From contig JAZTWM010000001.1 of NCBI GenBank assembly GCA_045635825.1, positions 52,358-116,357 on the forward strand: a DNA stretch of 64,000 nucleotides. The letters run 5' to 3'. A model generated the notes under the pieces. The model saw nothing but the letters and a program-made list of their open reading frames with translations, was not told where the DNA came from and did no database searches. The first letter of the stretch is position 1; each line of letters starts with the position of its first letter. The translations under genes were made by a program, and so were the position numbers. Below, piece by piece: positions 10,935 through 33,082 of the stretch. The stretch is from Candidatus Enterousia sp. Lineage in GTDB: Bacteria > Pseudomonadota > Alphaproteobacteria > Rs-D84.

Positions 10935-10983
10935 ATCTATCCCCCTTTCTTGGTCAAAGGGGGATATTTATGATGTAATCCAT

Positions 10984-11087
10984 AAAAAAAGACGAACAAA
11001 TACCGTTCGCCGAATAAACACATTATATCACAAAACATAGAAAAATCCCAATAAAAAACGTCCCATTTGGGACGTTTGATAATGGGG
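10984..11087. repeat. left copy of a ~105-bp imperfect direct repeat (terminator hairpins plus spacer)
   Basis: About 85% identical to 13230-13333; both copies end in the identical 35-nt AAAAAACGTCCCATTTGGGACGTTTGATAATGGGG. Confidence 0.7.
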
Positions 11088-11273
11088 CCCCATATTTGAC
11101 AGCGTTCTACCCCAAGACGTGCAACAAGTACTTGATTTAGACCCATTGCTGGACGAGGTGTTAGCGGAAATAAAAAATCATACCAGTAAGTTGTGTAACG
11201 TTCCTGATTGATTCAACGTGACCTGTGTATAATGTCATTGACAGACAATATAAATCTAAATAAGATTTGAAGT

Positions 11274-11678
11274 ATGAAGAAGTTATTGTTTGTTTTTTGT
11301 GTGTTTACTGCGTTATCACACGTCGGTTTTGCAAAATCTGATTATATTGCAATGATGCAAAGTTGTGATACAGAATACGAAAATGCCAGCAAACGTGCCA
11401 ATACGACCATAGAAATTGTACAATCAATAGACACGCATACGGAATGCTATAAGGCAATTGTTTCAGAAATAATAACAGCAAAATATAAACAAAACCATGA
11501 AAGCATGTGGAATAATTTTATTCAATATACAGACAGTGCCGCAGATGCGACATCATATATTCAGCGCCCAGATTCTTGTTATCCACAGTGCGGTTCAATC
11601 ATTGGGATAAATGCGGCGACATCAAAATTCGATGCCACCAAACAATACCTGGAACAACTGATGTCGATGAATCAATAA
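11274..11678 (+). CDS. secreted Cys-containing hypothetical protein
   Basis: N-terminal signal peptide MKKLLFVFCVFTALSHVGFA; several Cys; no known motif. Confidence 0.45.
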   Translation: MKKLLFVFCVFTALSHVGFAKSDYIAMMQSCDTEYENASKRANTTIEIVQSIDTHTECYKAIVSEIITAKYKQNHESMWNNFIQYTDSAADATSYIQRPDSCYPQCGSIIGINAATSKFDATKQYLEQLMSMNQ

Positions 11679-12017
11679 TCACTTATCGCGCTGAAAATAA
11701 AACTTACATCCGTCCAAATAGACGTATATCAAATCAGAATTTGCAACATAAAATTTTTCTATTGTGCCTGTATCTTTTTTTACCAGAATTTCTTGTGCGT
11801 TTTCATCAATATCAAAATCGCCGATGGTAATGTTTGCAGCATTGATTTCAACAGCAGTATTTTCATAATAACTTTGCACCATCCAATCGCAATCTGCGGT
11901 TATATATCCAGCATATTCAAATCGGTCAAAAGACCATTTGCCACAGAACTCACAAGATTTGCTGTCTGTAGAGCTACAACCAATCAAAAATACACAAACC
12001 AAAACTATCTTTTTCAT
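11679..12017 (-). CDS. lipoprotein, hypothetical; start trimmed to MKKIVLV
   Basis: MKKIVLVCVFLIGCSS carries a lipobox (LIGC); ~100-aa mature domain with 4 further Cys. Confidence 0.45.
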   Translation of the reverse strand: MKKIVLVCVFLIGCSSTDSKSCEFCGKWSFDRFEYAGYITADCDWMVQSYYENTAVEINAANITIGDFDIDENAQEILVKKDTGTIEKFYVANSDLIYVYLDGCKFYFQRDK

Positions 12018-12049
12018 GCAACACAGTATAAATGATACGATTGTAAAAA

Positions 12050-13189
12050 TCAATATATACCACGTTTATACAAGTTCCATTCATGTTGCCTGCGGTTAAT
12101 TAAACCGTTTGATACTTTTCCCTGGGTGCGATTCCAGGCTTTCCATGCGGATTCCAAATCCGAATAAACAGAGCTATGAAAATCAGGATTGTTTATATAT
12201 TTCACAACCGTAGAATTTTTGAAACCACTTGTACCAATATTATACGCCAAAGATACAAGAGCATCATATTGGGGTTGCGACATTTGTGCTGTAATATTGT
12301 CTTGTACAGCGCGTTCTGCCGTGGCTATATCAGAACGTAATAATGCAATCGCCTGCTGTTCTGTGATTCCGTTTGTAAAATCTTCACCTGGCTTTACCAA
12401 ATGCCCATAACCAATTGTTGCGCCTTTTGGCAAAGGCTCGTTCGTATTTACTGGTTTTTTCGTAGCATCATCATATATAACATGATTGCCCAGCTTGTCT
12501 AACACTCTATCTTCCTTGCCTTTCAACCACTCGATACCTTTATCGCTCATTTTCATATCACTTGCCTTTTGTGTGTCTGGCTTTTGGCCTTTATAAACCT
12601 TGCTGTCTATTTTCTTGCCGTTTTTGTCCAGTTCTATTTCTTCAACCCAACAGCGACAGTTTGGATGAACGGGACAAACAGGTATATCTTCTTTGTTTTC
12701 ATAGACTGTTCCATCGTTCCCCGAACATTCATCGCATGTATTTTCACCATGTTCGCTGTGCCACCGCCATATTTTTGGGGCAATTGCGAATTCTGGAATT
12801 TCCAGTTTATATGTACTCAATTTGTCGTCTGCAATGTAACCGCCCGGCATTAAAACCCTGACTGGTATTGGATCGCCGGGAACAACATATTCTTCGATAT
12901 CAAAATTAAAACCGATTGTTTCAAAGTAATCACCGTATGTGTCCAGGACATCTGCTTCTGCCTCGCTTTTATCGGACTCGAACTCTGCATCTATTTCATG
13001 CTGGGCGTCATAAAACTGTTCCAATGTCATATCGTATTCTGGGCGCATCATACGCCCTGTGGCATCAAATTGCACAGTCCCCGGATATAGGATATTCATA
13101 TACTTGGTTGCCCGCTTGTATGTTTCGCTGGTTTTATCACCGTATTCGGGTGAAGTTATCAGTTCTTGTAAAAATTTTGGTGTTTGCAT
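12050..13189 (-). CDS. fusion of phage MuF-like head-morphogenesis C-terminal region with a GH24 phage-type lysozyme
   Basis: CDECSGNDG..VCPVHPNCRCWV is the MuF C-terminal Cys/His motif. TIGYGHLV..GITEQQAIALLRSDI..YDALVSLAYNIG..GLINRRQHEWNLYKRG is the lambda/P21 R-type lysozyme signature. Confidence 0.65.
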   Translation of the reverse strand: MQTPKFLQELITSPEYGDKTSETYKRATKYMNILYPGTVQFDATGRMMRPEYDMTLEQFYDAQHEIDAEFESDKSEAEADVLDTYGDYFETIGFNFDIEEYVVPGDPIPVRVLMPGGYIADDKLSTYKLEIPEFAIAPKIWRWHSEHGENTCDECSGNDGTVYENKEDIPVCPVHPNCRCWVEEIELDKNGKKIDSKVYKGQKPDTQKASDMKMSDKGIEWLKGKEDRVLDKLGNHVIYDDATKKPVNTNEPLPKGATIGYGHLVKPGEDFTNGITEQQAIALLRSDIATAERAVQDNITAQMSQPQYDALVSLAYNIGTSGFKNSTVVKYINNPDFHSSVYSDLESAWKAWNRTQGKVSNGLINRRQHEWNLYKRGIY

Positions 13190-13229
13190 TTTCTTCCCCC
13201 ATAAAAAAACACCCGCGTGTGCGGGTAAT

Positions 13230-13333
13230 AAAAAAAGACGACCAAATGTCGTCCGCTGAATGTACGTATTATATCATAAAACGCACAGAAAAATCAATAA
13301 AAAACGTCCCATTTGGGACGTTTGATAATGGGG
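13230..13333. repeat. right copy of the ~105-bp imperfect direct repeat; its last 5 nt overlap the 3' end of tRNA-His
   Basis: See left copy; contains hairpins GACGAC-caaat-GTCGTC and ACGTCCCA-ttt-GGGACGT acting as terminators for the minus-strand tRNA. Confidence 0.7.
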
Positions 13334-13406
13334 CGGATAACCGGACTCGAACCGGCGACATTTGGTACCACAAACCAACGCTCTAACCAACTGAGCTATA
13401 TCCGCC
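13329..13406 (-). tRNA. tRNA-His (anticodon GTG) with encoded G-1 and CCA
   Basis: G-GCGGATA..anticodon arm TTGGT-TTGTGGT-ACCAA..T-arm GCCGG-TTCGAGT-CCGGT..TATCCGC-C-CCA; G-1 pairs with C73. Confidence 0.85.
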
Positions 13407-13436
13407 ATACTGTGGGTCATACGACCTGATTTTTTT

Positions 13437-13510
13437 TGGTGGAGCTGATCGGACTCGAACCGACGAGATGCGTGTTGCATGCCATCAAGTGTCCAACCCG
13501 TCCATCAAGG
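13437..13510 (-). pseudogene. partial tRNA-Ala copy (3' ~55 nt: acceptor 3' strand, T-arm, part of anticodon arm); cannot fold as a tRNA
   Basis: First 30 nt TGGTGGAGCTGATCGGACTCGAACCGACGA are identical to the adjacent full tRNA-Ala, and TTGCATGCCAT is shared, but the 5' half diverges and the acceptor stem cannot pair. Confidence 0.6.
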
Positions 13511-13518
13511 TTTTTCTT

Positions 13519-13714: not shown

Positions 13715-14731
13715 TTAGTGTTGTGCCTGCGTTTCGTGCAAACTGGCATAAACTTCTTTTGCTTTTTTCTGTGCTGCCTTGACACCGCGACTGAACAAGC
13801 TTGCCTGCATGTTTTTGATTGCGATAATCAACGTTGCGGTTGCGGATTGGTATTTATCCACATCCTTTTTTGCTGTGCCCAATGAATTTACCAGCATTTC
13901 TACAGTTTCTTTTTTTTCTGCTAATTCTGCATTTGCTGTCCCCAACATGGATTCTGCGGTTTCGGCACGTTTACGCAGTTCTGCGGCTTCTGCTGTCAAT
14001 GACTTGATTGAACGTTGGTCTGCGTTTGACATTGTTGGGATGAATTTCTTAAAGTTTGGTGTCAACAATTTGTCTGCATTGTATTCCTGACAAATTCTAT
14101 CATATGTTTTTTGATCTTGTGCGAATACGTGCTTTGCGCAGTCAATAACTGTTTTAGAGATAGTCTGGATTGTTGCCGCAACTGGAATAGTCTGGTCCAG
14201 ACAGTACTGGATTTCTTTGCGTGCCAACTTTTCGACATCCGCAAAGATGATTGCTTTGCTGCCTGGTTCTGAAATATAGACTAATTGCGCCAAATCGTGA
14301 CTTGTTGCATGTTCGCTGGCTGCACACATTTTAATTGCGTTCTTGCCTATGCTGGTTGCGGGGTTAGATGCCGCTTTCAATACTTCGTATACCAGCTTTG
14401 TATCTTTTACGTGTCTTAATGTCAACAGCAATTCCTGCAAAGCGTTTACGTCTTCCTGTTTTTTGGAAAACGCAACGGCTGCGCGCGCCCTATATAACAT
14501 GTTCAAGACGTGCATATCGGCTGCTTGATTTGCTGATGTGCCTTGTGCTGCACGGGCACTACGCATCGCTGCAACGATTGGGGATTTAGAGTTATCAAAC
14601 AACTGTTGATCGTTAAATGCGCTAACTTCGCCTGTAATAAATTTCATCGCTCTTACAGCATCTGAATATTTGCTGCCCAAGAACAATTCCTTAATAGCTT
14701 GTTCGAAATCGAATGAGATTTTGCTATTCAT
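13715..14731 (-). CDS. hypothetical protein with C-terminal coiled coil
   Basis: No known motif. C-terminal 90 aa (AEAAELRKRAETAESMLGTANAELAEKKETVEML...) are coiled-coil-like. Confidence 0.4.
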   Translation of the reverse strand: MNSKISFDFEQAIKELFLGSKYSDAVRAMKFITGEVSAFNDQQLFDNSKSPIVAAMRSARAAQGTSANQAADMHVLNMLYRARAAVAFSKKQEDVNALQELLLTLRHVKDTKLVYEVLKAASNPATSIGKNAIKMCAASEHATSHDLAQLVYISEPGSKAIIFADVEKLARKEIQYCLDQTIPVAATIQTISKTVIDCAKHVFAQDQKTYDRICQEYNADKLLTPNFKKFIPTMSNADQRSIKSLTAEAAELRKRAETAESMLGTANAELAEKKETVEMLVNSLGTAKKDVDKYQSATATLIIAIKNMQASLFSRGVKAAQKKAKEVYASLHETQAQH

Positions 14732-14916: not shown

Positions 14917-16098
14917 TTACAGGCTCTTGCCCATGTCTTCGGCCATTTTTTGATAGTCTTTAACGCCACTGCTGCCCAGACCTGATTTCATGCGTTTTGC
15001 ACCCGCAATCAACCGTTTTAATTTGTCTTCTGTGTTTTCTTTGGACTGACCCAGGCTATCGTTTGCTCGACGCAGGGACTCGTTTTCACGTGTCAATTCT
15101 GCGTTTTGTTGTTTTGCATCCATTAATGCTGTGCGTTCCGCTACTAATTCTTGTTTTGACCTTTCCAGGTTTGCCTGCAATTCTGCCACTTGTTTTTGCA
15201 GTGCATCAATTTTTGCAACATCTGCGGTGGATAATTTTTGCATATATGCCACCGCATCTGGCATTATCAGTTTTTCCATTTTGTATTTATCTACCTGCTC
15301 TTGATACTGTGCACCTGTAATTGCTTTGGCTTGCTGTGCACGATATGCAATTCTTAGTGACGTATCAATCGTACGTTGTACTTCCTGCATATTTGGTGAT
15401 TCTTTGGCTAATTCCTTGGCCAAGAAAGAAGATGTCATTTTGTCTGCGTCTTCATACAGTTTTTGGAATGTTGCCACATCATGCTGTGGTGTAATATAAG
15501 ACAGATATTCCAGGTCATCCACAGTTGCCAATGGGCTGTTTGCACGAAGTGTTATCGCCATTTTTTGACTGGCCGGACTGCTTTCATTTGCAACGCCCCT
15601 GGATAAATATTTCAGCAATTGATGTTTGGTTTCTTCGTTTTGCACTTGATTGAACTTTTGCAACATCATCAATCGCATGTTTTCAATTTCTTTTTCATTT
15701 CTTGGCATCGGTTCCAAGACTTTTATACTTTCCGGCGATAAATAACGAATATCCCTGTTCGTATAAAACAGACGTGATATATTTTTCAGTCTGGCAACAA
15801 AATTTTGTGCTTCTGGTGTGTCTGGATTTTTTCTGACTCTGTTCATGTGATCTATGAAATATACAATTTTCTGTATATATAATTTTTCTGGCCCCGACAT
15901 CCTATCTGATTGCATTTGTTTTTCCAGATTTTCAGTGCCCTTGCTAAAATTGTCCTCCAGGCGTTTATCTGGATGACCACTGGCATACAGACAGGAATCT
16001 GCCCAGAACCCCAGCCCCACAATTGGCAAAAACTCATCGTTTTGCAAAATCAACTCTGCCAAGGTTTCAAGACTCATATATTGTTTTTTGTCTTCCAT
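14917..16098 (-). CDS. hypothetical protein with long C-terminal coiled coil
   Basis: No known motif. C-terminus ALQKQVAELQANLERSKQELVAERTALMDAKQQNAELTRENESLRRAND is a strong heptad coiled coil. Confidence 0.4.
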   Translation of the reverse strand: MEDKKQYMSLETLAELILQNDEFLPIVGLGFWADSCLYASGHPDKRLEDNFSKGTENLEKQMQSDRMSGPEKLYIQKIVYFIDHMNRVRKNPDTPEAQNFVARLKNISRLFYTNRDIRYLSPESIKVLEPMPRNEKEIENMRLMMLQKFNQVQNEETKHQLLKYLSRGVANESSPASQKMAITLRANSPLATVDDLEYLSYITPQHDVATFQKLYEDADKMTSSFLAKELAKESPNMQEVQRTIDTSLRIAYRAQQAKAITGAQYQEQVDKYKMEKLIMPDAVAYMQKLSTADVAKIDALQKQVAELQANLERSKQELVAERTALMDAKQQNAELTRENESLRRANDSLGQSKENTEDKLKRLIAGAKRMKSGLGSSGVKDYQKMAEDMGKSL

Positions 16099-31457: not shown

Positions 31458-32174
31458 ATGTTGCGACCATCTTTACGAAAAGCCAATCAAATGCGTCCTG
31501 TATCTATGGAAACAGGTGTTAACAAGTGGGCCGAAGGTTCATGTTTGATAAAAATGGGTGGTACACATGTGTTATGTACTGCATCTGTTGATTTTTCGCA
31601 ACCAACTTGGAAACGTATTCAAAACAAGACCGGTGGTTGGGTAACGGCAGAATATTCTATGTTACCACGTGCAAATGGAACCCGTAAAAGTCATGAATCA
31701 ATGACCAAAGATAATCGTGCCGTCGAGATTTCACGTCTAATCGGTCGTGCATTACGCAGTGTTGTTGATATGGATAAACTGGGGCGTCATACGATAACGA
31801 TTGATTGTGATGTGATTCAGGGGGACGGTGGTACACGTTGTGCCAGTATAACTGGTGGATTCGTTGCCTTGGCACTGGCTGTTCGTTGGTTGCTGGCCCA
31901 GGGGCGTATTAGTGAAAACCCAATTTCAGACAATGTTGCCGCTGTATCCGCCGGTCTGTGGAATAATGAATTGGTCTTGGATTTGGATTACGAAGAAGAT
32001 TGTGTTGCCGAATTGGATTCTAATTTTGTTATGTCTGGCGATGGTCGCTTTATCGAAGTCCAGGCAACCGGTGAACAACATCCATTTTCTGCGGACCAGT
32101 TGACCCAGTTAATGCAAATGGCATCAGACGGTTGTAAAAAATTGATAGATTTACAGAATCAGATTCTTGATTAA
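31458..32174 (+). CDS. rph: ribonuclease PH
   Basis: LRPSLRKANQMRPVS..EGSCLIKMGGTHVLCTASV; 238 aa. Confidence 0.9.
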   Translation: MLRPSLRKANQMRPVSMETGVNKWAEGSCLIKMGGTHVLCTASVDFSQPTWKRIQNKTGGWVTAEYSMLPRANGTRKSHESMTKDNRAVEISRLIGRALRSVVDMDKLGRHTITIDCDVIQGDGGTRCASITGGFVALALAVRWLLAQGRISENPISDNVAAVSAGLWNNELVLDLDYEEDCVAELDSNFVMSGDGRFIEVQATGEQHPFSADQLTQLMQMASDGCKKLIDLQNQILD

Positions 32175-33082
32175 TCTTTTGCACGTGGGTGGGCATTGGC
32201 GTAAATATTTGATATTTCCGCCATGTTCACCTTAGTATACAGTTGTGTGGTGGATAGTGAAGAATGCCCCAACAATTCTTGCAGACTGCGTAAATCCGCC
32301 CCGCCTGATAATAATGCCGTTGCAAATGTGTGTCTTAGTGCATGCGGTGTAACATAGTCAGGTAATTGTAGATAGCATCTAAGTTTTTCAATCACTTTTT
32401 CTGCCATGCGTGCCGACATTGGCAAACCGCGTACACTGCGAAATAGTGTGTCATTTGCATCATTGCCAAATGGACGCATGTCAATATACTTGCCAATCGC
32501 ATCCCATACCGCTGGCAATACAGGAATCAATCTTTCTTTCTTCCCTTTTCCAATAATACGCAATATATCTGGACGGCCATGTACATCTTGATTGGTCAAT
32601 GATAATGCCTCAGAAATACGCAGACCACACCCGAATAACAACAATACCAACGCCCAATCACGTGCCGCAATCCATGGTTCATGTGCATCAATTTCACGAA
32701 TTGCACCATGCATATTTTCCACATCTATTGGATCAATGGCCTTGGATAATTTGCGTGGCACCTTTGGTGCAGAAATCAGGCCAATTGCATCATTTTTTAC
32801 CCCGTATTGTCGCCCCAGAAATTTGTAAAAACCACGTACAGATGACAATGCACGTGCCGTTGATTTTGCCGTCAGTCCCCGTCTTTGTCGGTCTGCCAAG
32901 AAAGAACGCAGTCCCAACGTATCCACCTGTGCAATATCATTTATCTGTGGATTTTTGCCCATAAACTTTTCATAAAAAACGATAAAGTCACGAACATCAT
33001 TTTCGTACGCGGTCGCTGTATGGGGTGAATAATTTTTCACCCCACGCAAATAATCAATAAACTCAGCAACAATTTCATTCAT
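32171..33082 (-). CDS. xerC: tyrosine site-specific recombinase XerC/XerD
   Basis: ARHTFATALLSGGADLRSLQELLGHSSLSTTQLYTKV with catalytic R..H..R..Y; C-terminus AHPRAKD is XerC-like. Confidence 0.75.
   Translation of the reverse strand: MNEIVAEFIDYLRGVKNYSPHTATAYENDVRDFIVFYEKFMGKNPQINDIAQVDTLGLRSFLADRQRRGLTAKSTARALSSVRGFYKFLGRQYGVKNDAIGLISAPKVPRKLSKAIDPIDVENMHGAIREIDAHEPWIAARDWALVLLLFGCGLRISEALSLTNQDVHGRPDILRIIGKGKKERLIPVLPAVWDAIGKYIDMRPFGNDANDTLFRSVRGLPMSARMAEKVIEKLRCYLQLPDYVTPHALRHTFATALLSGGADLRSLQELLGHSSLSTTQLYTKVNMAEISNIYANAHPRAKD

Follow-up and report, generated by a model that had tools for sequence, protein, structure and literature searches.

Introduction

The MuF polymorphic toxins are, judging from sequence, the closest described family to the locus that we report here. 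They are reported to be exclusively encoded by phages and prophages, immediately downstream of the portal gene and mainly in Firmicutes or Bacteroidaceae; their N-terminal domains are PF04233, PF06152, MuF3 or MuF4, and their C-termini are cytoplasm-acting domains such as nucleases, ADP-ribosyltransferases and RelA-like domains (Jamet et al. 2017, PMC5576092). A related system from Bacteroides stercoris, Bxa, comes with two immunity proteins (Alexei et al. 2024, PMC11699363). So far MuF-type toxins have been described only in temperate phages, and their mode of delivery is unknown. In this paper we analyse a 2.1-kb segment of the Candidatus Enterousia contig JAZTWM010000001.1, which lies between two copies of a direct repeat next to a tRNA-His gene and encodes a 379-aa protein with a MuF-like N-terminal region and a C-terminal lysozyme domain. 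The stretch of 64 kb in which it was studied is called the window below, and contigs of related genomes are referred to by handles such as L087. We propose, with a probability of roughly 0.6, that the segment is the active cassette of a polymorphic peptidoglycan-toxin/immunity locus whose anchor is the tRNA-His 3' end, and that the repeat represents two generations of its leader. The observations that carry this proposal are the repeat itself, the conservation of the leader, the polymorphism of the C-terminal domain, the co-variation of the partner genes, the orphan arrays and the scars at tRNA ends in relatives.

The locus shares with the MuF toxins and Bxa an N-terminal region with a MuF-like (PF04233-like) motif, interchangeable C-terminal putative toxin domains, small candidate immunity ORFs after them (two immunity proteins in Bxa too) and a gut host. 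It differs in its chromosomal position directly 3' of a tRNA, and no context that we examined shows adjacent phage genes. The portal gene of the window (28-1266) lies 10.8 kb from the putative toxin gene (12050) instead of next to it. Furthermore, the host is an alphaproteobacterium with a reduced genome, just ~50 aa of the MuF domain are recognisable, and all C-termini are peptidoglycan-directed and paired with exported partners.

Peptidoglycan-targeting interbacterial effectors with periplasmic immunity proteins are also known from the Tse, Tae and Tlde1 families of type VI secretion systems (T6SS) and from the X-Tfe/X-Tfi pairs of the Xanthomonas type IV secretion system (T4SS). Muramidase and L,D-transpeptidase-like (Tlde1, PF10908) domains next to a gene for a lipoprotein or periplasmic immunity protein are common to these effectors and our locus. 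In contrast to them, the Enterousia N-terminal domain is unrelated to known trafficking domains. Among the 34 window ORFs that we scanned with Pfam, in four batches, there are no genes of type V, VI or VII secretion systems and none of the T6SS markers PAAR, MIX, VgrG and Hcp; a single ORF is weakly VirB8-like.

The general definition of polymorphic toxins, together with the orphan toxin/immunity arrays of contact-dependent inhibition (CDI; cdiA-CT/cdiI) and Rhs systems, was given by Zhang et al. (2012, PMC3482391). Our locus resembles these in having a full-length gene followed by displaced C-terminal modules and immunity genes, and in a sharp motif at the swap point, here ...KVYKGQKP. The Enterousia protein is however small (379 aa), its orphans in L087 carry their own terminator, ribosome-binding site (RBS) and ATG, and the array is tethered to a tRNA.

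Successive insertions at the 3' end of a tRNA gene leave displaced tRNA fragments in tandem islands, and derivatives of the cis-mobilisable element (CIME) type are integrase-less units flanked by att-like repeats. Both properties are seen in Enterousia, whereas the repeat described here is mainly a promoter/terminator leader rather than tRNA sequence, and we observed neither excision nor an empty site. In the late control of lambdoid phages the promoter PR' gives a short terminated transcript, and Q antitermination opens the terminator tR' and thereby the lysis genes. A strong promoter, intrinsic terminators within tens of nt and a lysozyme gene are likewise found in Enterousia, but with two tandem terminators, in a chromosomal context and with no Q-like gene or qut site identified.

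The host belongs, according to its LysRS relatives, to Candidatus Enterousia (order Rs-D84), a gut alphaproteobacterium. Genomes of this genus have about 0.75-1.0 Mb (PMC12306168), that of the host ~0.9 Mb. The genes that flank the locus, including lysS, frr, uppS, cdsA, rseP and bamA, are chromosomal.

A lysozyme fusion with exchangeable C-termini

By its sequence the 379-aa protein is a fusion with a phage-type lysozyme of the GH24 family that retains the catalytic Glu, Asp and Thr. Phage_lysozyme (PF00959) matches aa 257-370 with E=1.4e-29, solved endolysin and lysozyme chains match the domain with E-values down to 7e-25, and the catalytic residues E226, D241 and T258 are invariant in 35 homologs. 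Many of the 398 homologs retain residues 1-204 at 82-88% identity and then continue with a fully different C-terminus. The switch takes place at one sharp junction, ...SKVYKGQKP(D/E), and the alternative C-termini are GH24 (PF00959), GH108 (PF05838) and YkuD/Tlde1 (PF03734/PF10908) domains.

In the N-terminal domain only a stretch of ~50-60 aa around a Cys/His motif at aa ~140-190 resembles the head-morphogenesis or minor-capsid (MuF) proteins of phages. Phage_Mu_F (PF04233) reaches 25 bits at aa 136-182, below its cut-off of 29.6 bits, and covers model positions 62-111 only. PHROG head-morphogenesis families match aa 140-200 with E about 1e-7, and the matches in BFVD, which extend over ~50-60 aa, have a probability of 0.97-0.99 but a TM of about 0.2. 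An AlphaFold (AF2) model of the domain has a pLDDT of 82.5 and found no fold match in the PDB. The domain with its MuF-like zinc-knuckle motif would presumably direct trafficking or packaging of the protein.

Partner genes and orphan modules

Each C-terminal type pairs with its own small partner ORF across independent lineages. The GH24 type is accompanied by a convergent p134-like exported protein (the window species, L013, L094, L096-99 and L105-109) and/or by a lipoprotein (the window, L001, L087 as an orphan, L100 and L040). The p134 homologs, 29-44% identical, all stand convergently behind a GH24-type fusion, and L087 retains a remnant of one; searches of Pfam and PHROG assigned p134 itself to no family. 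The Tlde1 type has as its partner a 117-aa multi-pass membrane ORF in L087, L100 and L009, and at the same position L036 has a 115-aa membrane ORF without a sequence match to it. The GH108 type is found with a convergent 129-aa ORF (p129) in L090 and L100.

Sister genomes have orphan modules, arranged in arrays. In L087-89 a full Tlde1-type gene and its partner are followed, in this order, by a Tlde1 remnant, a stand-alone GH24 gene, a lipoprotein gene and the p134 remnant. This GH24 gene, which has its own terminator, RBS and ATG, encodes a domain 95% identical to that of the window. In L100-104 a full GH24 gene with the lipoprotein gene precedes two orphan modules, one of Tlde1 type that includes the 117-aa ORF and one of GH108 type that includes p129. 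In L090, of the GH108 type, the lipoprotein gene alone is retained as an orphan. L002 lacks the lipoprotein, and its GH24 domain is only 52% identical to that of the window.

The conserved N-terminus, the polymorphic C-terminus, the adjacent candidate immunity gene and the orphan cassettes are the features by which polymorphic toxins are recognised, here on the basis of position and co-variation. From them we infer the toxicity of the 379-aa protein and the immunity role of its partners. We regard p134 as a candidate periplasmic immunity protein for the GH24 domain and the lipoprotein as a candidate immunity protein for the GH24 subtype of the window. Both genes have promoter-like sites of their own, which fits the expectation for constitutively expressed immunity genes.

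The repeat as the probable leader of the putative toxin gene

The initial annotation had described direct repeats of about 105 bp, identical in their last 35 nt, around three genes and no recombinase. Our repeat search agrees with it to within 2 nt at the boundaries. The two copies are 107 nt long and 84% identical at a spacing of 2246, their final 38 nt are fully identical, and none of the three ORFs between them is a recombinase according to Pfam. The 35-mer core AAAAAACGTCCCATTTGGGACGTTTGATAATGGGG occurs exactly twice in the window with up to 3 mismatches allowed, compared to 0 expected occurrences (100 shuffles).

The two copies had further been taken as att sites made by integration at the 3' end of tRNA-His. 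Given the position of tRNA-His(gtg), located with ARAGORN and Rfam, the right copy overlaps just the last six tRNA bases (G71-A76, which read TGGGGC on the + strand). All the rest of it, ~101 nt or ~95% of the repeat, is sequence downstream of the tRNA, and in it we predict a leader. In every species examined the order upstream of the fusion gene is tRNA, terminator T1, promoter, terminators T2 and T3, and RBS. These elements are conserved in 10 alleles and species, with some compensatory changes in the stems and a nearly invariant -10 region, T.TG.TATAAT. The region has 10 terminator-like sites where 2.3 are expected, and the leader of the right copy folds with z = -4.9.

The same leader is found behind three tRNAs, namely His (the window and L087), Ser-gga (L096-98 and L106) and Ser-tga (L094). 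Behind tRNA-His of L080, which has no toxin gene, the downstream sequence is unrelated. In L087, L096-99 and L106 the leader is present once and the same genes occur without a flanking repeat, an observation that the initial annotation had named in advance as refuting its interpretation. Because it is conserved across species and three tRNAs, the right copy is best read as the toxin gene's own leader and not as a product of integration. The toxin gene would be transcribed from the extended -10 promoter within the repeat, and its transcription would have to pass two intrinsic terminators, T2 and T3, so that the gene is probably near-silent unless termination is overcome.

Strain alleles and the origin of the left copy

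Strains with identical LysRS have different alleles at this locus, whose left limit is marked by the terminator hairpin of p466, kept in L001-L006 and L093. The arrangement of the window is found in L001, and the truncated contigs L003 and L005 match as far as they reach. In L001, L002, L003 and L005 the left T1' hairpin is decayed and there is a poly-C tract of 8-14 instead of the GGGGCCCC of the window, so that the identical 38-nt core is specific to the window strain. Overall the C tract at the left junction (window 11083-11091) varies between 4 and at least 14 in the strains; contig L005 ends inside it. The spacer 11101-11213 is kept in L001-3 and partly in L006.

A different allele is found in L004/L093. 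Read from the p466 side, it consists of p466, a 30-nt T2' remnant, a gene for a 201-aa protein (MuF201), a terminator T3'' and a full leader, followed by a 19-nt fragment of the tRNA-His 3' end, an insert of 135 bp with a new terminator after it, and finally the intact tRNA-His. Two parts are recognisable in MuF201, a domain like that of peptidoglycan hydrolases (phrog_873, E=2e-27) and a MuF motif (PF04233, E=5e-10). The left copy of the window is 98% identical to the MuF201 leader, which in L004/L093 stands next to a tRNA-His fragment, and we therefore suggest that the locus grew by tandem accretion at the tRNA end. In the window no gene separates this copy from the p466 terminator, which makes it an orphaned leader.

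We propose a history of three steps, the order of which we infer from the present alleles. First, a MuF201-type gene would have occupied the site, with the left copy as its leader. Insertion at the tRNA 3' end would then have brought in the present cassette together with a tRNA-His 3' end and a leader of its own, and recombination between T2 and the T2' remnant would finally have removed MuF201. The partial T2' beside p466 in L004/L093 supplies homology for such a deletion. The left junction of the window, …AGAACGCTGTCAAATATGGGGCCCCA…, resembles the core …GGAACGCAGTGCAGTGAAAGGGGCCCA… of miniature inserts found at tRNA ends in the genus, which suggests that a later deletion cut the tRNA fragment to 6 nt. 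The toxin gene at tRNA-His is syntenic in the sister species L087 and predates the split from it.

Window and L001 are ~100% identical over 11200-12600, but the identity falls to 81-87% around the left junction and ranges from 69 to 100% in the N-terminal domain and the leader, and this unevenness indicates that recombination has reshuffled these parts. The same 38-nt T1 allele is shared by both copies of the window, the right copy of L002 and the middle copy of L004/L093, which explains the identical last 35 nt of the initial annotation.

Insertion at tRNA 3' ends

Integration at tRNA ends is, from the sequence scars, real in this genus. In L004/L093 (tRNA-His) and in L013 and L036 (tRNA-Ser-gga), the tRNA and the toxin leader are separated by miniature non-coding inserts of 135-180 bp. 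Where we inspected both ends (L004/L093, L013 and L036) they are flanked by duplications of 19-22 nt that start in the T-loop, and they have their own terminator. Related copies adjoin tRNA-Arg(cct) and tRNA-Gly(ccc) and occur within a chain of islands at tRNA-Lys. They share the core ...GGGTTCGG...GAAAGGGGCCC...GGGAAT(A/T)ATAC, match no Rfam family and may be attP-only remnants of integrative elements.

Larger insertions are found as well. In L100 a unit of tRNA-His fragment, leader and toxin array lies in the tRNA-Lys island chain, which contains a P4-type integrase and two tRNA-Lys fragments. In comparison with L106, L105 and L107-109 have an additional element with a terminase gene, whose insertion point is the last ~8-12 nt of tRNA-Ser, a short way upstream of the leader. 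In L094 a degenerate 43-nt copy of the tRNA 3' end, 2093 nt downstream of the tRNA, brackets the fusion gene and p134 and separates them from a Gabija-like module.

Some of these contigs have further contents that deserve mention. The island of L100/L101 (3912-9490) is 5.5 kb long, lies at tRNA-Lys(ttt) and is bounded by a tRNA-Lys 3' fragment; it encodes the P4-type integrase (Arm-DNA-bind_3 and Phage_integrase) and an Imm_superinfect gene. A second integrase with an HTH_17 (excisionase-like) element is found beyond the toxin array at L101 16699-18225. The Gabija-like pair of L094 (10740-14878), an OLD-family AAA/TOPRIM ATPase and a UvrD helicase beyond the degenerate tRNA-Ser fragment, suggests that a defence island has accreted at the same tRNA.

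These scars raise the question whether the segment is a true mobilisable islet of the CIME or satellite type. The 107-nt copies would then be attL and attR of a discrete 2.1-kb element, excised and re-integrated by a tRNA-targeting tyrosine integrase from elsewhere, with an attP that has evolved to include the region downstream of tRNA-His, whence the similarity of the leaders. The geometry fits, with an intact tRNA, the islet and then a displaced tRNA 3' remnant. The fusion is moreover found behind three different tRNAs in different species, L094 has its bracket, the unit of L100 lies in a chain with an integrase, and integrase-less mini-inserts with tRNA duplications are common in the genus. 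We nevertheless consider this explanation unlikely. Only 6 nt of tRNA are duplicated, compared to 19-22 nt or 43 nt at the equivalent position in relatives, and the identical core is specific to one strain, the left hairpin being decayed in four others. Among the strain-level contigs we met with no presence/absence polymorphism that leaves a clean empty site, and the modules of L096-99 and L106 have no flanking repeat. The right copy is syntenic and conserved in the sister species, so it looks resident and not incoming. The window has a single tyrosine recombinase gene (32171-33082). Its product is of Xer architecture, and the gene belongs to the syntenic core, with 68-79% identity across the genus; it is not a cognate integrase. 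P4-type integrases exist in related genomes, none of them linked to the window strain.

Two suggestions of the initial annotation thus hold in part. The att-type geometry stands in so far as the tRNA 3' end is an insertion hot-spot, as the scars in L004/L093, L100 and L105/L107 indicate, but nearly the whole repeat is leader. A cargo islet mobilised in trans is a fair description of the geometry, with an att-type site at a tRNA and no integrase of its own, although ~95% of the repeat is not duplicated target.

A second alternative dispenses with a site-specific recombinase. The cassette could have entered or been duplicated by RecA-dependent homologous recombination, of the Campbell or gene-conversion type, between the leaders of two toxin alleles, and the repeat would be the segment of homology. 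The short mosaic tracts across N-terminal domain, leader and left copy, the shuffling of T1 alleles among copies and strains, and a perfect identity of 38 nt, which is enough for RecA, are what one would expect. Orphan modules like those of L087 and L100 are also typical of recombinational displacement in polymorphic toxin loci. This explanation however does not account for the constant position of the module immediately 3' of a tRNA, nor for the tRNA-fragment scars with their constant breakpoint in the T-loop, and 84% identity over 107 nt is a poor substrate, so that we find it rather improbable as the origin of the whole arrangement. The window cassette itself may have been inserted either by an integrase in trans or by homologous recombination.

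That the segment is a decayed prophage or satellite, as the initial annotation had also suggested, with the MuF-lysozyme as a leftover virion-associated or lysis protein and the small ORFs as unrelated morons, is highly improbable: the matches of the MuF-like motif to phage head-morphogenesis families, the classic endolysin fold of GH24 and a T7-type portal/Bbp19/Mtd_N remnant 9.7 kb away would fit, but in ~12 independent contexts the module contains no further phage gene, tblastn gave no match for the N-terminal domain in the 50,697 phage genomes of INPHARED, one IMG/VR scan (close relatives only) gave none for the full-length protein, and the genus-wide conservation in genomes of ~0.9 Mb, the domain swapping, the orphan cassettes and the co-varying exported partners are hallmarks that indicate toxin/immunity selection.

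There are several points that weigh against our own reading as a tRNA-anchored toxin/immunity locus with two leader generations. No signal peptide can be read from the sequence of the 379-aa protein, no secretion system is evident in the window, and the MuF assignment of the N-terminal domain depends on a ~50-aa motif that scores below the Pfam threshold. In L002 p134 is 97% identical despite the divergence of the GH24 domain, so there is no tight co-variation at strain level, and for this reason the lipoprotein is the better candidate for a subtype-specific immunity protein. With just 6 nt of tRNA-His in the left copy the crossover cannot be mapped. L006 is without the left copy, which requires an additional deletion in our model. 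Finally, an empty-site allele of p466, leader and tRNA-His, which the initial annotation had proposed to look for, was not among the nine strain-level contigs, which show alternative cassettes. Other species offer no such site, because p466, although its synteny with LysRS is genus-wide, is followed by tRNA-His in no species but that of the window.

Features and neighbourhood of the locus

Table 1. Features at the tRNA-His locus (window coordinates, except in the last row).
Feature	Position	Strand	Basis or remark
Bidirectional terminator hairpin of the upstream 466-aa gene (p466)	10938-10966	both	11-bp stem
Left (distal) copy, orphaned leader	10982-11088	-	repeat search; comparison with MuF201 leader
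T2' hairpin and T-run, left copy	10991-11011	-	predicted
Promoter TTGGGA-18-TATAAT, TG before -10, left copy	11022-11051	-	predicted
T1' hairpin, left copy	11056-11077	-	predicted
tRNA-His 3' remnant, 6 nt, left copy	11083-11088	-	sequence comparison
Left junction and non-coding spacer	11083-11213		TGGGGCCCCATATTTGACAGCGTTCT resembles core of miniature tRNA-end inserts
p134, 134 aa, exported, Sec signal peptide MKKLLFVFCVFTALSHVGFA	11274-11678	+	ORF; own promoter 11238-11266; convergent with toxin gene
Lipoprotein, 112 aa, lipobox LIGC	11679-12017	-	directly downstream of toxin gene; own promoter-like site 12025-12053
MuF-like/GH24 fusion, 379 aa (putative toxin gene)	12050-13189	-	Pfam
GH24 (phage-type) lysozyme domain, aa 206-379, exchangeable module	12050-12574	-	PF00959
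Conserved N-terminal domain, aa 1-205, ending at swap junction	12575-13189	-	homolog comparison, Pfam
Cys/His MuF-like motif, aa 136-182	12644-12784	-	Pfam
T3 hairpin and T-run, outside the repeat, directly upstream of toxin RBS (GGGGGAAG) and ATG	13210-13227	-	in all species
Right (tRNA-proximal) copy, working leader	13228-13334	-	repeat search, folding, conservation
T2 hairpin and T-run, right copy	13236-13254	-	predicted
Extended -10 promoter TTGATT-18-TATAAT, TG before -10, right copy	13268-13297	-	predicted
T1, tRNA-His terminator hairpin, right copy	13302-13323	-	terminator prediction
tRNA-His(gtg), locus anchor	13329-13405	-	ARAGORN, Rfam
Miniature inserts in relatives	L004 13060-13194; L093 1366-1486; L013 10600-10779; L036 8400-8580, 8770-8860; L100 9715-9850; L065 18970-19094; L067 3824-3860

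Next to tRNA-His there are tandem pseudo-tRNA-Ala units of 79-82 nt, which lie between tRNA-Ala and tRNA-His (window 13430-13511; L087 9596-9753). Their 3' ~30-37 nt match tRNA-Ala (nearly) perfectly and their 5' part is degenerate; the window has one unit, L087 two, and L001/L002 none. Between tRNA-Ala and frr follow two paralogous coiled-coil-like ORFs of 338 and 393 aa (13715-14731 and 14917-16098; ~27% identical), the first of which is missing in L001 and present in L002 and L093. On the other side of the locus, a DDE transposase fragment (L092 4000-4763) abuts the p466 stop codon in a 4.8-kb contig, which is either a chimeric assembly or an allele disrupted by an insertion sequence.

Further away, window 28-2234, together with an upstream part seen in L001/L002, is a phage-like remnant next to dnaB. 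Besides an ORF that resembles a T7-type terminase nuclease, it has genes for a portal (Head-tail_con, E=2e-82), for Bbp19 and for an Mtd_N tail-fibre-like protein, as well as a 78-aa ORF; we saw no capsid gene in it. The portal is 85% identical in L049, whose LysRS is only 76% identical, and the Mtd-like protein has 56-73% identity between strains with identical LysRS. From the Mtd-like gene to rpmG extends a block of glycosyltransferase, pyruvyl-transferase and radical-SAM genes (2261-6942). Its gene content varies among L001-L004 and the window despite identical LysRS, and it looks like a variable region for surface polysaccharides. Just after bamA, the ORF at 21803-22561 matches VirB8 with E=2e-9 and 38 bits, above the cut-off; the ORFs that follow have no Pfam match. 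Possibly this is a T4SS fragment.

Implications

The cluster near dnaB offers a candidate for a device that the putative toxin could use. One speculative idea, which we hold with little confidence, is that a particle or injection device of phage origin has been domesticated, and that the MuF-like N-terminal domain loads it with interchangeable heads that degrade peptidoglycan; antitermination at the double-terminator leader would gate their expression. The candidate device would be encoded by the T7-type portal/Bbp19/Mtd_N cluster, which lies 10 kb upstream and is conserved, with a strain-variable Mtd-like receptor-binding protein. If this were true, the locus would be part of a phage-derived contact weapon or of a tool for entry into prey, with warheads exchanged at a cassette site anchored at a tRNA.

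Our results also suggest caution when islands are called from repeats alone, as what plausibly looks like an att repeat can consist of a regulatory leader in two generations. For the MuF-type toxins, the locus would represent a chromosomal, tRNA-tethered variant with peptidoglycan-attacking warheads in an uncultured gut alphaproteobacterium with a reduced genome. A genome of ~900 genes that maintains and diversifies such a locus speaks for its importance to the lifestyle of the organism, be it in competition with other bacteria or in dependence on them.

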